Assembly (NCBI GenBank): GCA_026396995.1
Contig: JAPLVS010000054.1
Location: 24,052 to 88,051, forward strand
Source: Candidatus Iainarchaeum sp.
GTDB lineage: Archaea; Iainarchaeota; Iainarchaeia; Iainarchaeales; DTGL01
DNA length: 64,000 nt
Direction of reading: 5' to 3'
Part shown: piece by piece, positions 10,777 through 61,598 of the stretch
Layout: each line of letters opens with the position of its first letter
Numbering within the stretch: the first letter of the stretch is position 1
The notes under the pieces: model-generated
What the model was told of the DNA's origin: nothing
The model's database searches: none
The model's input: only the letters and a program-made list of their open reading frames with translations
Position numbers and translations under genes: made by a program

Positions 10777-10790
10777 ACTTATACTAATGA

Positions 10791-10850
10791 CCGTAATTAC
10801 TTAAAATAATTACGGTAAGCTCGATTAATTATAGTAATTACTGGTAATTA
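10791..10850. promoter_or_regulatory. Palindromic operator-like sites upstream of gene 10318-10776: CCGTAATT-N9-AATTACGG and the 10-bp palindrome AGTAATTACT
   Basis: Perfect inverted repeats within 15-75 bp of the ATG at 10776 on the minus strand, embedded in an AT-rich TATA-like sequence. Confidence 0.35.
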
Positions 10851-11266
10851 TTTTTTCTAATTTTTAATGCAAAAGTAATTGCCTTTTCAAAGGTTTTTTC
10901 AAGACCAAATAGGCTTTCATTGCTTCGGGCGGTTTTAGGTGCGCTGCCGGGCGAAAAGTAATTGAGGCACAGCTGCCTTTTTTGCCTGCTTTTCTAAAGG
11001 TCAGCCTGAATTTGGGCTTGGCCTGCGTTTCAGGCTGAAAGTAAGCCAGTCGGCTTTTGGGCATTTTCCGCCTTTTTCCGGGGCACGGCAAAGTGCATTA
11101 GTTTGGCAATAAAGTAATCCTGGCCCTACTGGCGCCAAACAGGTGTTTTTTGCTATTGAATGGAAAATGAGTGCCCCCTTCCGGGAAACCAGGCTGGTTT
11201 GCCCGAAAGTAAGCCAGAGTTTTTCTGGCCAAAAACCGGGCTTTTGGCCAGATTAGAAAAATAGAG

Positions 11267-11341
11267 TAGCGGGGAAAGGATTTGAACCTTTGACCTTCGG
11301 GTTATGAGCCCGACGGGCACTCCAGGCTGCCCTACCCCGCT
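11267..11341 (-). tRNA. Initiator tRNA-Met (anticodon CAT)
   Basis: Manual fold gives acceptor AGCGGGG/CCCCGCU with an A1:U72 pair, an anticodon stem with three G-C pairs (GGG/CCC), loop CUCAUAA, and a TTCAAAT T-loop. No CCA is encoded. Confidence 0.85.
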
Positions 11342-19639: not shown

Positions 19640-19918
19640 AAAGCGTGGGCACGCCCTGAAATCGATTTGGCCTGAAAGGCTGGAGTGACCCACTGCATTC
19701 CTCGCTTCCGTTTACCTCAAAGCATTTCGCTTAAAGGCCACCGTTGCTTTCTTCCGAACCTGGCGGGTTCACCCTTAGGCAAAACCTAAGAGGACAGAAG
19801 TTCCTTGTAGTGCAATGGCTCCGGCTTTCCAGGAAAAACCTTTCCCAAGGCTTCGGTCCCGGCGTGAAGCGGATTTCCGGCTACAGGGAACCGCTGCCTC
19901 CCCAACCTAGCCCACAAA
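19640..19918 (-). ncRNA. ffs: Signal recognition particle RNA (7S/SRP RNA)
   Basis: On the minus strand, GGUGAACCCGCCAGGUUCGGAAGAAAGCAACGGUGGCC matches SRP RNA helix 8 (GGAA tetraloop, AGCA). CACUCCAGCCU pairs with the 5' CCUGGAAAGCCGGAG to form helix 5. The terminal helix is GUGGGC/GCCCAC. A hairpin plus T8 run lies at the 3' end. Confidence 0.65.
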
Positions 19919-27035: not shown

Positions 27036-27728
27036 ATGGCTGGAAACAATGCCTTCCAAATAAAGAAGAGAAGGCAAATTGAACTTGTTGCAATGATGCA
27101 TTCTGTTGCGGTGTCCTTGAGCCCGGAGCAAAAAAGATTTGTGCGCCCTTATGCAAATCTGACTGCGCTGAGGAAGTACTTTAACGGTAGATTGAAGCCA
27201 GGGCAGACAGTGGCATTGGAAATTTCACAGGGCCTTTTGGAAGCAGTGAGAGAACGCGGCTTTCGGAGGCGTTTGAAAGTGATGGCAGCCCTTCCAGACC
27301 CCCCCTATGATGTGCTGGGACCAGCGTCATTTGCAGTTGGCTTGGTAAAATATCTTGACTCGGCTGGTGCAAAGATAATTCCCCTCGCCACAATGGCGGA
27401 AAACAGGGCGGAATTGCAATCGCTCAGAGATGAGCGATATGCCAAAAGGATTGCAAGGCTTGCGGAAACAGGAAAAAAGCCGGATTTTGTTTTAATCGGG
27501 GCCAGCCATGGGAGGTCAGTGCAAAGCCTTTTGAGGAAAAAAGGCTATTTTGCCAACATTGCTTTTAAAACAGGTTTGCCGGAGGAGGCGATGGAATCGC
27601 TCTTAGCGAAATCAGCACGTGAAAGAGAAATGGAACGTCTGGCCCGCCTAAAGAGTAGGCTCCAGAAAAAACAAAGAAACCTCAAAGAAGGACGACTCAC
27701 GCCAAAGCGCCCCCGCCTCCCAAAATAG
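27036..27728 (+). CDS. Hypothetical protein
   Basis: 230-aa ORF with a basic C-terminus. No motif recognised. Confidence 0.35.
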   Translation: MAGNNAFQIKKRRQIELVAMMHSVAVSLSPEQKRFVRPYANLTALRKYFNGRLKPGQTVALEISQGLLEAVRERGFRRRLKVMAALPDPPYDVLGPASFAVGLVKYLDSAGAKIIPLATMAENRAELQSLRDERYAKRIARLAETGKKPDFVLIGASHGRSVQSLLRKKGYFANIAFKTGLPEEAMESLLAKSAREREMERLARLKSRLQKKQRNLKEGRLTPKRPRLPK

Positions 27729-27742
27729 GGAGAAACAGCCAA

Positions 27743-27783
27743 AATCAACCAATGTTATACTTTTTTATAATTTTGGTTGATTC
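27743..27783. promoter_or_regulatory. Perfect 10-bp inverted repeat AATCAACCAA-N21-TTGGTTGATT bracketing a TATA-like TTTTTTATAA, immediately upstream of the AbiEii-like gene
   Basis: Seen directly. It overlaps the predicted promoter and start region of 27792-28436. Confidence 0.35.
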
Positions 27784-27791
27784 TATTTAAT

Positions 27792-28436
27792 ATGAAGTTG
27801 CCGTTGTTCAACAGGCTGAAAAGCCAGTTGCACCGCGATATGGCCCTGTTGCAGGACGAGGTTGCGGATATCGTGTATTCGATTGAGCCAAAGGCGGTAT
27901 TGCATGGCGGCACCGCGGTCTGGCGCTGTTATTCGAGCAACCGCTTTTCAGAAGACCTCGATTTTTACATCGGTTCCGGCAAGGGCTTCAGGGAAAAATT
28001 TTTTTCCGCGGTTGAATCGCGCGGCCTCAGGGTTGAAAAATTCAAGCAGACTTCAAGCACGGTTTTTTCCAAAATTTCCAGCGGCCGGAATGAAGTTCGT
28101 TTTGAGGCCGCATTGAGGCTGCCGAAAAAGACAGCCGCTGCCGGATATGAAAAGGCCGATGGGACATTCATGAGCATTTTCACCCTGTCGCCCGAGGGCC
28201 TCCTGCTGGAAAAAATGTCAGCGTACCAAAACAGGCGCCTTGCCCGCGACCTTTATGACATTGTTTCACTGCTTTCTTTTGTGAAAGACGAAAAAGTAAT
28301 TGAAAGCGAAGCGCTGGCGTTCATCGAATCCGCCAAAGCGCCTGTTGATGAAAAAGCCCTGAAAGCCCTGGTGTTCTCAGGCGCAGTGCCTTCATTTGAA
28401 CAGGCAATGGATGCAATAAGGAGGCGGTTCAAATGA
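27792..28436 (+). CDS. AbiEii/AbiGii-family nucleotidyltransferase (type IV TA toxin-like)
   Basis: LHGGTAVWRCYSSNRFSEDLDFYIG matches the AbiEii NTase motif (GGTAL...R.SEDIDF). Confidence 0.55.
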   Translation: MKLPLFNRLKSQLHRDMALLQDEVADIVYSIEPKAVLHGGTAVWRCYSSNRFSEDLDFYIGSGKGFREKFFSAVESRGLRVEKFKQTSSTVFSKISSGRNEVRFEAALRLPKKTAAAGYEKADGTFMSIFTLSPEGLLLEKMSAYQNRRLARDLYDIVSLLSFVKDEKVIESEALAFIESAKAPVDEKALKALVFSGAVPSFEQAMDAIRRRFK

Positions 28437-29044
28437 AATATGCGTCGATTGTGAGGGAGCATTTTTCAAAGCAGGCTGTTTTCAGCATACGCGACCTTTC
28501 AATTTTTCTTTCAACCAAGGGCATTTCCAAAGGCTATGTGCGCCTGTTTCTCCACAACCTTTTGAAAAAAGGCGAAATCGTGCGCATTTCCAAAGGCATT
28601 TATTCTTTTGAAAAAGACCCGGTGCTTTGGGGCTTTGCTTTTTCGCCTTTTTATTATGGCCTGCAGCAGGCACTTTCCCTGCATGGCCTATGGGAGCAGG
28701 AAAGCATTCCAGTAATAATAACGCCCAGAAAAGTGAGAACCGGCCTGAGGGAAATCTGCGGCTCGAACATCTTGGTCAGGCGCATCGGCAGGAAAATGTT
28801 TTTCGGCTTTGAAATGCTGCCCTATTACGGCCAGTTCATCCCGGTTTCCTGCCCTGAAAAAACCCTTTTGGATTTTTTTTATTTCAGGGAACCTTTGCCT
28901 GAAAGCGCGCTGAAAGAGCTCTTGAAAAAGGCCGACGGCAAAAAATTGAACGCTTTCCTTAAAAAATACCCGAAGCGCTTCAGGCATTCGTTCAGGAAAA
29001 AATTCCCTGTCTTCTTTGAAAAAGCCGGAAAGGAAAAGAAATAG
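28433..29044 (+). CDS. AbiEi-like antitoxin / wHTH transcriptional regulator
   Basis: N-terminal wHTH (FSIRDLSIFLSTKGISKGYVRLFLHNLLKKGEIVRISKGIYSF) is typical of AbiEi. Overlaps the upstream gene by 4 nt (ATGA). Confidence 0.5.
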   Translation: MKYASIVREHFSKQAVFSIRDLSIFLSTKGISKGYVRLFLHNLLKKGEIVRISKGIYSFEKDPVLWGFAFSPFYYGLQQALSLHGLWEQESIPVIITPRKVRTGLREICGSNILVRRIGRKMFFGFEMLPYYGQFIPVSCPEKTLLDFFYFREPLPESALKELLKKADGKKLNAFLKKYPKRFRHSFRKKFPVFFEKAGKEKK

Positions 29045-29046
29045 GC

Positions 29047-29771
29047 TTAAGACCGCCCGGATGTTTTTTTGGAATTTGTGTAGTCAACTATTGCAAAGAG
29101 TGCCTTTCCTGTTTTTTTGTCAATGTCGAGCACTAAAATGTTCGCTGTATGAGCTTCAATGTCAACGGCCGAAAGCGTGAATAACTCCAGGTATGCCCTT
29201 TCAACAATTTCTTTTGCTTCCTGAGGATTTATTCCCTTTCTTTCCATTTTTTTGTAAAAATAGTCCGAATAACGCGAAAGGCCGAAATGATATGCGGGGG
29301 TTAGCGAGGTAAGATAGCCGCCAAACGAGTGGAGAATATCCAAAGCAGCAGGGCAGGATAAACCCGTTCCACGTACCTAAGCCCTTTCCTGTCAATGCCA
29401 AGGATTTCTACTGGCTGAAGCTCAAAATATTTTGGCTTTTTGCCCATAATGTATCTTGGAATGCTTTCTGCCAGTTTAAGGGCGTTCTCGAAATCTTGCT
29501 GGGACTGAAATTCCCTCGCGGTTCCAGCCATCGACTTCGAAAAAGGCAAAAGAGTTCTTTTCCAACGTATCGGCTTGCGCAGGTTTTTTCTCACGCGCCG
29601 GCCGGCATCATAATCAGCCCAAAATCTCCTGACTTGCTTTCTTGAAACTTTTTTCGGTTTTTGAATGCAGAAAACAGAGCCAGGCATTGGCTGCAGCACT
29701 CTCGCTTTGGGCAATTTCATGCCTCCTTGAGCGCCTTCACAATTTCCTTCAATCCTTCTTTTGTGTTCCAC
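29047..29771 (-). pseudogene. Hypothetical gene apparently split into two overlapping frames (29301-29771 and 29047-29343)
   Basis: Two same-strand ORFs overlap by 43 nt in different frames. No motif recognised. The 5' end also overlaps the upstream epimerase gene. Confidence 0.3.
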
Positions 29772-34718: not shown

Positions 34719-34808
34719 TATCAAAAGACAGCACTATCAGTATTTCCTAAATGTCTTTTGATAGTTATCAAAGGACAAATTTATACGATTATTTTTGTCC
34801 TTTGATAT
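34717..34808 (+). repeat. Double-hairpin intergenic repeat element, copy A
   Basis: ATATCAAAAGACA-N21-TGTCTTTTGATAGTTATCAAAGGACAAA-N14-TTTGTCCTTTGATA fills the whole spacer between convergent genes. Confidence 0.75.
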
Positions 34809-34811
34809 GAA

Positions 34812-39383: not shown

Positions 39384-39470
39384 ATCAAAAGGCATTGATT
39401 CAGGAATTTTTCTGGCCTTTTGATAACTATCAAAGGGCAATATTGTTCATTTATTTTTGTCCTTTGATAT
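39384..39470 (+). repeat. Double-hairpin intergenic repeat element, copy B (diverged)
   Basis: ATCAAAAGGCA...GGCCTTTTGATAACTATCAAAGGGCAA-N16-TTGTCCTTTGATAT lies between eif6 and rplX. Confidence 0.6.
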
Positions 39471-39726: not shown

Positions 39727-39816
39727 TATCAAAAGACATTAATAATGATATTTTCTAAATGTCTTTTGATAGCTATCAAAGGACAAATTTATGCGATTAT
39801 TTTTGTCCTTTGATAC
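39727..39816 (+). repeat. Double-hairpin intergenic repeat element, copy C
   Basis: ATATCAAAAGACA-N21-TGTCTTTTGATAGCTATCAAAGGACAAA-N14-TTTGTCCTTTGATA lies between rplX and pfdA. Confidence 0.75.
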
Positions 39817-39845
39817 AATAAGTACATTGTTTGAGAGGTGAAGCG

Positions 39846-61509: not shown

Positions 61510-61598
61510 ATATCAAAGGACCAAAGTAATGTATAAATTGGTCCTTTGATAGCTATCAAAAGACAGTTAGAAAACCAGTAATGCTGTCTTTTGATATT
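61510..61598 (-). repeat. Double-hairpin intergenic repeat element, copy D (inverted orientation)
   Basis: Its reverse complement reads ATATCAAAAGACA-N19-CTGTCTTTTGATAGCTATCAAAGGACCAA-N13-TTGGTCCTTTGATA. It sits in the divergent promoter region between pth2 and 61683-63476. Confidence 0.75.

Follow-up and report, generated by a model that had tools for sequence, protein, structure and literature searches.

A likely toxin-first AbiE-family toxin–antitoxin module with a conserved TATA-centred candidate operator in a DPANN archaeon

The gene pair described here lies in a 64,000-nucleotide stretch of Candidatus Iainarchaeum sp. (assembly GCA_026396995.1, contig JAPLVS010000054.1, positions 24,052 to 88,051; the whole stretch is hereafter the window). 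Its closest described relatives are toxin–antitoxin (TA) modules in which a DUF1814 (COG2253, AbiEii) nucleotidyltransferase is encoded beside a COG5340 (AbiEi) antitoxin. That such DUF1814-COG5340 pairs are widespread, in archaea as well as bacteria, was recognised in 2013, and AbiE was characterised in 2014 (Dy et al.). In Streptococcus agalactiae, AbiEii is a pyrimidine-specific tRNA nucleotidyltransferase, the essential residues of which are G49, R63, D67, D69, K173, R180 and D192 (Dy et al.). AbiEi binds AbiEii and induces autophosphorylation of T65, two residues past the motif-II arginine, which abolishes activity; the induction depends on D85-E86-I87, a flexible loop of AbiEi, and the class of AbiE is under revision from type IV to type VII. 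The S. agalactiae promoter, PabiE, is overlapped by two inverted repeats of 23 bp, separated by 3 bp, and each repeat binds one AbiEi monomer, cooperatively. The related MenT toxins of Mycobacterium tuberculosis are nucleotidyltransferases acting on the tRNA acceptor stem and are regulated by phosphorylation at the equivalent Ser/Thr.

The antitoxin gene comes first in the examples from Lactococcus lactis, S. agalactiae, M. tuberculosis and Mycoplasma. Toxin-first pairs are nonetheless known from bacteria: RlegTA, SdenTA and SanaTA were reportedly found by shotgun cloning by Sberro and colleagues in 2013. All three are validated bacterial TA pairs, in which a DUF1814 toxin is reportedly followed by a COG5340 antitoxin; rlegTA and sanaTA affect T7 infection. 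Mycoplasma TA160/1 was also considered as a toxin-first case, as suggested by its locus tags, and was rejected since the paper places the antitoxin upstream. From archaea, PygAT of Pyrococcus yayanosii is described as a COG5340-COG2253 AbiE-type TA system with experimental evidence. In a 2026 survey covering 7,747 archaeal genomes, AbiE was enriched in DPANN archaea, and archaeal AbiEii clustered apart from bacterial AbiEii.

In the window, two intact open reading frames (ORFs) are found on the + strand at 27792-28436 and 28433-29044. They are adjacent and co-oriented, and the stop codon of the first and the start codon of the second share the ATGA at 28433-28436, an overlap from which translational coupling may be inferred. 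An earlier note, drawn by a model from the sequence of the window, had read the pair as an AbiEii-like nucleotidyltransferase followed by an AbiEi-like winged helix-turn-helix (wHTH) protein, overlapping by ATGA, and had proposed profile searches as a check. The overlap is present as described, the two peptide motifs quoted are contained in the respective ORFs (HGGTAVWRCYSSNRFSEDLDFY in the first, KKGEIVRISKGIYSF in the second), and the profile searches, run against Pfam and PADLOC, confirm both families.

The first gene, abiEii (27792-28436, +), encodes a putative toxin, a 214-amino-acid (aa) DUF1814 Pol-beta-type nucleotidyltransferase. The ORF as called mechanically opens at a TTG at 27777, inside the right arm of the repeat described below. 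The true start is the ATG at 27792 (MKLPLFNRLK): all homologues open with M-[KR]-[IL]-P-L at this point, and the gene as called independently on a contig of identical sequence is also 214 aa long. The protein matches Pfam PF08843 (AbiEii) at 60.8 bits (cut-off 22.5) and 26 PADLOC AbiEii models (best 4e-18), and its close homologues carry the NCBI name 'AbiEii/AbiGii toxin family protein'. Single-protein sequence searches of the PDB gave marginal matches at most for both proteins of the pair, and a fold search was needed. The AlphaFold model (predicted local distance difference test, pLDDT, 94; predicted template modelling score, pTM, 0.89) had as its best fold matches MenT4/Rv2826c (6y56, E = 1e-8), the Helicobacter pylori DUF1814 nucleotidyltransferase JHP933 and MenT1, and a profile of 30 AbiEii homologues searched against the PDB matched JHP933 (2e-9), MenT4 and AbiGii. 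The Pfam, PADLOC and MenT4 matches thus bear out the assignment to AbiEii/DUF1814. The pair does not belong to the MNT-HEPN type: no HEPN or MNT Pfam match was found and the partner is a wHTH AbiEi protein.

Inspection of the 30 homologues revealed invariant residues at G39/G40, R51, S53, D55, D57, E105, K141 and R148, as well as in an R152-D153-x-Y155-D156 motif. Motifs I-IV of DUF1814 Pol-beta-type nucleotidyltransferases (hG[GS]...R-x3-D-x-D; K-x6-R; D-rich motif IV) are therefore all present. The active-site motif reads R51-F-S53-E-D55-L-D57 (R-x-S-x-D-x-D), in which R51/S53/D55/D57 correspond to R63/T65/D67/D69 of S. agalactiae AbiEii, and K141/R148 to its K173/R180. The conserved Ser/Thr phospho-acceptor expected two residues past the motif-II arginine is here the predicted acceptor S53, invariant in all 30 sequences. 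Identity within the family is 47-74% across Diapherotrites and Micrarchaeota.

The second gene, abiEi (28433-29044, +), encodes a putative antitoxin and repressor of 203 aa, with an N-terminal wHTH and a C-terminal AbiEi/COG5340 domain. It matches Pfam PF13338 (AbiEi_4) at 30.6 bits (cut-off 25), the match of its C-terminal domain to AbiEi_1 falling below the cut-off (18.4 against 22.2 bits), and PADLOC AbiEi models at 5e-15 over residues 13-150 and at 2e-14 over residues 8-178, which is near full length. NCBI lists a protein of 100% identity as 'type IV toxin-antitoxin system AbiEi family antitoxin'. The model of the protein (pLDDT 93) was compared with the PDB using Foldseek; the only significant matches named are S. 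agalactiae AbiEi (6y8q, E = 4e-7) and Rv2827c (1zel, E = 3e-4), both in alignments spanning ~200 columns. An AbiEi profile found no match among PDB sequences, and a direct phmmer match to 6y8q was absent, the identity being too low. The AbiEi_4, PADLOC and 6y8q fold matches together confirm an AbiEi-type wHTH protein, as had been proposed. Residues W87-E88-Q89-E90 are invariant or near-invariant. They belong to a loop that connects helix 77-83 to strand 94-97 and was modelled with lower confidence; from its position and conservation, this loop would correspond to the D85-E86-I87 loop of S. agalactiae AbiEi.

Membership of the AbiE family is thereby established for both proteins. In common with AbiE of Lactococcus lactis and S. 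agalactiae are both protein families, the overlapping bicistronic operon, the nucleotidyltransferase motifs I-IV, the R-x-[ST]-x-D-x-D motif with its phospho-acceptor position, and the two-domain antitoxin, wHTH followed by a C-terminal domain. However, the gene order is inverted here, the toxin is ~25-30% shorter, and the first gene is predicted to be leaderless and expressed from an archaeal promoter with its TATA box in a dyad, whereas the bacterial systems have a sigma-70 -35/-10 promoter. Structurally, the toxin comes closest to MenT4, and Rv2827c is one of three structures that the antitoxin matched significantly, but the MenAT pairs (MenT4/Rv2826c-Rv2827c, MenT1 and MenT3) differ in having the antitoxin first, longer proteins and identities of ~14-20%, and the Rv2827c operator differs in having four inverted repeats with negative cooperativity. 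PygAT likewise differs, being antitoxin-first going by its name and description. RlegTA and SdenTA (with SanaTA) resemble the present locus by description, in that a DUF1814 toxin lies upstream of a COG5340-type antitoxin in one operon, the arrangement also found here. They differ in being bacterial, and the bacterial toxin-first loci that were sampled branch apart from the archaeal ones. A tblastn search of plasmids for annotated bacterial toxin-first examples returned distant matches, with neighbouring 'hypothetical proteins' that had no Pfam match.

Gene order was compared in three sets of loci obtained by exact-protein look-up and in 80 further loci, one genome per species, with the AbiEii and AbiEi ORFs located throughout by iteratively built hidden Markov models (HMMs). 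Homologues of both genes came almost entirely from metagenome-assembled genomes (MAGs) of DPANN archaea (Diapherotrites/Iainarchaeota, Micrarchaeota, Woesearchaeota, Pacearchaeota). Among close relatives, in which AbiEii is ~210-220 aa and at least 32% identical, AbiEi follows AbiEii directly in 26/26 informative loci, usually with a 4-nt overlap; one locus (L014), ending at a contig edge, was left out as uninformative for order. The distant relatives, mostly bacterial and with an AbiEii of ~240-270 aa, instead show the canonical AbiEi-then-AbiEii order in 49/57 cases. The toxin-first order was found in three of these (L060, L073 and L083) and no partner was detected in the remaining five. In two of the five (L043 and L071), the contig begins no more than a few hundred bases ahead of AbiEii and an upstream partner may have been cut off. 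Two others (L037 and L049) have a longer wHTH protein upstream of AbiEii, a ~340-aa partner with an AbiEi-like N-terminal wHTH (1896-2927 and 1908-2927, respectively) that was missed by the AbiEi HMM; their AbiEii is short (~220 aa), gammaproteobacterial, and branches beside the archaeal toxin-first clade.

A neighbour-joining tree unites the archaeal toxin-first loci in a single 27-tip clade that includes no canonical-order member. The three bacterial toxin-first loci group elsewhere, in a clade of their own, so that the bacterial and archaeal inversions probably arose independently. Given these separate clades and the order kept in 26/26 loci, toxin-first organisation appears to be a trait that is stably inherited within a distinct compact-toxin lineage and that has arisen more than once. 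The flanks are wholly different among the close loci, with at least three unrelated contexts: L001 sits among syntenic housekeeping genes, L002 beside a peptidase M24 gene and NucS, and L003-L006 in an island with an MmeI-type restriction-modification system, GmrSD, Fic and PemK. The reversal relative to canonical abiE, first suspected from the window, is therefore borne out, and the pairing and order are conserved in homologous loci, another check that had been suggested. The outcome named in advance as speaking against the assignment, a generic nucleotidyltransferase beside a generic regulator with no conserved pairing, was looked at and is not what was found. In AbiE as usually described the antitoxin gene precedes the toxin gene, an arrangement found neither here nor anywhere in the archaeal clade. 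Order is, however, typical rather than definitional for AbiE, because PADLOC-based surveys count such loci as AbiE and validated toxin-first relatives exist. By the same token the toxin-first order is real yet not new for the superfamily, RlegTA and SdenTA being validated DUF1814-then-COG5340 pairs.

Two loci stood out in this comparison. One uncultured archaeal chromosome (contig OY969902.1) carries a toxin-first (L024) and a canonical (L082) AbiE locus together, a coexistence that would require insulation of operators and antitoxins between the paralogues. A MAG labelled 'Candidatus Acidiferrales bacterium' (DATLRT010000014.1, L025) contains a toxin-first module of the archaeal clade, including a TATA-centred dyad, and reflects either horizontal transfer or a mis-binned archaeal contig.

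Directly upstream of abiEii is a 40-bp dyad-symmetric candidate operator (27743-27782), composed of two 17-nt arms (27743-27759 and 27766-27782) around a 6-nt centre. Its outer parts form a perfect 10-nt inverted repeat, AATCAACCAA at 27743-27752 and TTGGTTGATT at 27773-27782, and the full arms are complementary at 15/17 positions. The earlier note had described the perfect repeat, read it as an operator and placed it around a TATA-like element; the repeat and the enclosed TATA-like box are as described, while the spacer is 20 nt and not the 21 nt it gave. The 10-mer occurs at these two sites only within the window. A perfect 10-nt inverted repeat is not rare in itself (~4.7 expected per 64 kb in Markov-1 simulations), and the significance of the dyad comes from its position and from its conservation in related loci. 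In an alignment of the 100 nt upstream of the toxin start, the 40-bp architecture (17-nt arms, 6-nt A/T centre) was seen in 25/25 toxin-first loci. In 24 of these the dyad is centred 18-33 nt ahead of the ATG, most often at 29.5 nt; the outlier, L018, has its centre at 43.5 nt, and its start codon is uncertain. The dyad of every locus scores better than mononucleotide shuffles (p <= 0.042, with ten loci at 0/500), and 334/425 arm positions across loci are Watson-Crick. The same dyad was sought upstream of the canonical-order loci, where assorted palindromes were found with neither the same architecture nor the same sequence.

The consensus of the half-sites reads AAT-n-AACCAAA-S-TTATA, and most of its positions have a high information content. 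In some loci entire half-sites have been exchanged symmetrically, as in GAACG/CGTTC (L010), TTTCACC/GGTGAAA (L011), CCTAAGTTAC/GTAACTTAGG (L014) and GAAAAGGATA/TATCCTTTTC (L027). The half-sites lie ~23-25 bp apart and overlap the core promoter, in which they resemble PabiE, but the arms are 17 nt long here compared with 23 bp there.

A closer inspection of the half-sites revealed that, at position 12, both arms carry C in 11 loci, and that G is present there in another 11. Residue 37 of AbiEi (R37 in the window), two past the invariant Tyr35 and at the start of the predicted recognition helix, is K or R in 11/11 of the G loci and H or Y (with one S) in 11/11 of the C/C loci. Several independent switches are seen between close relatives (L003 against L009; L002 against the window and L001; L010 against L008 and L012). 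This covariation has the signature of direct readout by the wHTH, and is strong indirect evidence that AbiEi binds the dyad. Negative autoregulation by AbiEi through inverted repeats overlapping the promoter, a feature of AbiE, is predicted here, with strong in silico support from the TATA-centred dyad conserved in 25/25 loci and from the covariation between the arms and with residue 37. The reading of the repeat as an operator now has stronger evidence behind it than the earlier note could offer.

The TATA-like box, TTTTTTATAA (27761-27770, +), occupies the dyad centre and the inner part of the right arm, ~26 nt before the ATG; no other A/T-rich TATA-like element lies within the 100 nt upstream. 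Archaeal promoters have their TATA box around -26/-27. On this spacing, the transcription start would coincide with the start codon or adjoin it, and the mRNA would be leaderless or near-leaderless. A GGAG or GAGG at -18 to -4 was found upstream of the toxin start in 0/25 loci, and upstream of the antitoxin start in 12/24 related loci. In the window a GGAGG Shine-Dalgarno (SD)-like element (28420-28424, +) lies 8 nt upstream of the abiEi ATG, within the 3′ end of abiEii. These signals suggest that the toxin cistron is leaderless and the antitoxin cistron SD-led. A perfect 11-nt inverted repeat, TTCATTTGAAC / GTTCAAATGAA (28391-28401 / 28427-28437), has the abiEi SD between its arms and extends over the ATGA overlap, and the hairpin at 28391-28437 has a predicted RNA folding energy of -22.2 kcal/mol (z = -2.3). 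It was rejected as a functional feature, not being conserved in homologous loci, and is probably a by-product of the coding sequence.

Taken together, these data make it likely, with good confidence, that the locus is a two-gene AbiE-family (DUF1814/COG2253 + COG5340) TA module of a small, symbiotic DPANN archaeon, toxin-first as in one archaeal clade. The possibility first raised, of a variant autoregulated TA module, gains support from both families, the toxin-first order, the conserved pairing and the conserved operator, all of them read from sequence. In the circuit that we infer, which takes in toxicity, target, neutralisation chemistry, repression and trigger, one promoter with its TATA box central in the 40-bp palindrome would drive a leaderless bicistronic mRNA. 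If it acts as S. agalactiae AbiEii and the MenT toxins do, AbiEii would add nucleotides to tRNA 3′ ends, halting translation. AbiEi would be translated from its own SD-led start overlapping the toxin stop at ATGA, and its C-terminal domain would neutralise AbiEii, most likely through induced autophosphorylation of Ser53 (the type VII mechanism); the same chemistry is proposed because the invariant S53 occupies the position equivalent to S. agalactiae T65. The AbiEi wHTH, bound to the two TATA-flanking half-sites, would cover the side of the TFB-recognition element (BRE) and the interval from the TATA box to the transcription start site, blocking access of TBP/TFB and giving negative autoregulation. 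The biological role could be antiviral abortive infection or stabilisation of the locus.

Several observations weigh against this reading. The global template modelling (TM) score of the AbiEi model against 6y8q is only 0.45, perhaps because domains in the AbiEi family are known to be flexibly oriented. The toxin has 214 aa compared with ~250-300 aa in characterised AbiEii and MenT proteins, and its substrate and regulation may differ. Neither a protein phosphatase nor a trigger was identified. The leaderless architecture is deduced from spacing alone, and the Fisher test of residue 37 against position 12 (p = 1e-5) is uncorrected for phylogeny. The module in the window is surrounded by housekeeping genes, with no defence island, and a scan of viral contigs returned no close relatives, only distant ones of at most 29% identity.

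The last two of these points would also suit a housekeeping role, in which the pair is a domesticated enzyme, such as a tRNA/RNA 3′-end nucleotidyltransferase serving the normal physiology of a reduced DPANN genome, together with its regulator, rather than a TA or defence system. Consistent with this, the pair lies between the geranylgeranylglyceryl phosphate (GGGP) synthase gene (PcrB) and the epimerase/RibD cluster in both the window and the syntenic L001, and the family is very well conserved, at the 47-74% identity given above. Such a role is nevertheless unlikely, since other members are found in the MmeI-type/GmrSD/Fic/PemK defence island and beside NucS, the distribution is patchy over many archaeal phyla with the module also present in one bacterial MAG, and one genome holds both toxin-first and canonical loci (L024 and L082). 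Moreover, the characterised relatives are all toxins, and tight autoregulation with gene overlap is a hallmark of TA systems.

The dyad could also be viewed as an RNA element and not a protein operator, either a hairpin terminator of the upstream gene or a stem-loop in a 5′ untranslated region controlling translation of abiEii. The arms could pair as a 15/17-bp stem with a U-rich loop, the dyad begins 15 nt past the stop of the upstream ORF (27728), and compensatory changes in both arms would suit an RNA stem too. However, the dyad keeps its distance to the abiEii ATG despite unrelated upstream genes, and the sequence of the half-site is conserved, beyond pairing alone. An RNA stem predicts an excess of wobble among arm mismatches, which is not seen (18 G:T and 14 A:C against 59 other). 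The only TATA-like box sits in the 'loop', so the left arm would be untranscribed from that box, and a residue of the AbiEi recognition helix covaries with an operator base; together these make an RNA element very improbable. That the locus is a decayed or inactive remnant, and the repeat a chance feature of AT-rich intergenic DNA, can hardly be right. About five single perfect 10-nt inverted repeats are expected per 64 kb and AT-rich promoters are often partly palindromic, but the ORFs are intact, the catalytic residues are all invariant, both models are confidently folded, and the dyad in 25/25 loci with its covariation effectively refutes this explanation. An AbiE-family TA module, probably controlled through the dyad, remains the preferred reading.

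The window itself is archaeal, containing an archaeal signal recognition particle RNA (19643-19917) and six tRNAs. Upstream of the pair are an RPA-like gene, a metallo-beta-lactamase-fold gene, the GGGP synthase gene and a 230-aa ORF; downstream are two small convergent ORFs, an NAD-dependent epimerase gene and RibD. The 230-aa ORF (27036-27728, +), between PcrB and abiEii, is missing from the otherwise syntenic L001, shows weak, sub-threshold Pfam similarity to the TraB/PrgY/GumN and ChaN (Tiki-type) families, and has a Lys/Arg-rich C-terminus. A run of seven Ts (29064-29070, +), 20 nt past the abiEi stop, is a candidate archaeal oligo-T terminator on sequence grounds. Elsewhere in the window, an ~80-90-nt element made of two tandem hairpin-forming dyads (ATATCAAAAGACA...TGTCTTTTGATA, then TATCAAAGGACAAA...TTTGTCCTTTGATA) is repeated in full at 34719-34809, 39727-39817 and 61511-61598 and in part at 39384-39445. 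At least two copies begin directly past the stops of + strand ORFs (34718 and 39373), and the element looks like an intergenic repeat of the repetitive extragenic palindrome (REP)/miniature inverted-repeat transposable element (MITE) kind or a terminator-like one. A cluster of perfect 10-nt inverted repeats (10790-10853, 11001-11038 and 11224-11252) lies just upstream of a tRNA-Met gene (11266-11341, - strand).

Four features, namely the archaeal clade, its operator centred on the TATA box, the pairing of a leaderless toxin cistron with an SD-led antitoxin cistron, and the residue 37-base 12 covariation, were not found described in the literature searched and appear undescribed. What is presented here is thus an extension of a well-known family and not a new kind of system, although at the level of the clade it is arguably an undescribed subfamily. 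It is possible, if somewhat less than probable, that archaeal toxin-first AbiE loci form a monophyletic subfamily of their own, defined by a compact 214-aa toxin, a TATA-centred 40-bp operator, a leaderless toxin with an SD-led antitoxin, and a residue 37 that sets base 12. If so, the clade would hold a natural, readable specificity code insulating paralogous AbiE modules from each other, and TA autoregulation at the TBP/TFB promoter of an archaeon would gain its first tractable model. Few defence or TA systems are enriched in DPANN archaea, AbiE being one of them, and no archaeal member of the toxin-first lineage is known to have been studied. The interest of the locus is chiefly as a ready-made experimental model, for which the comparative data offer a defined 40-bp operator, a predicted specificity residue, a predicted phospho-acceptor (Ser53) and a predicted leaderless/SD-led asymmetry, and which could show how a bacterial-type TA circuit has been rewired for an archaeal promoter.

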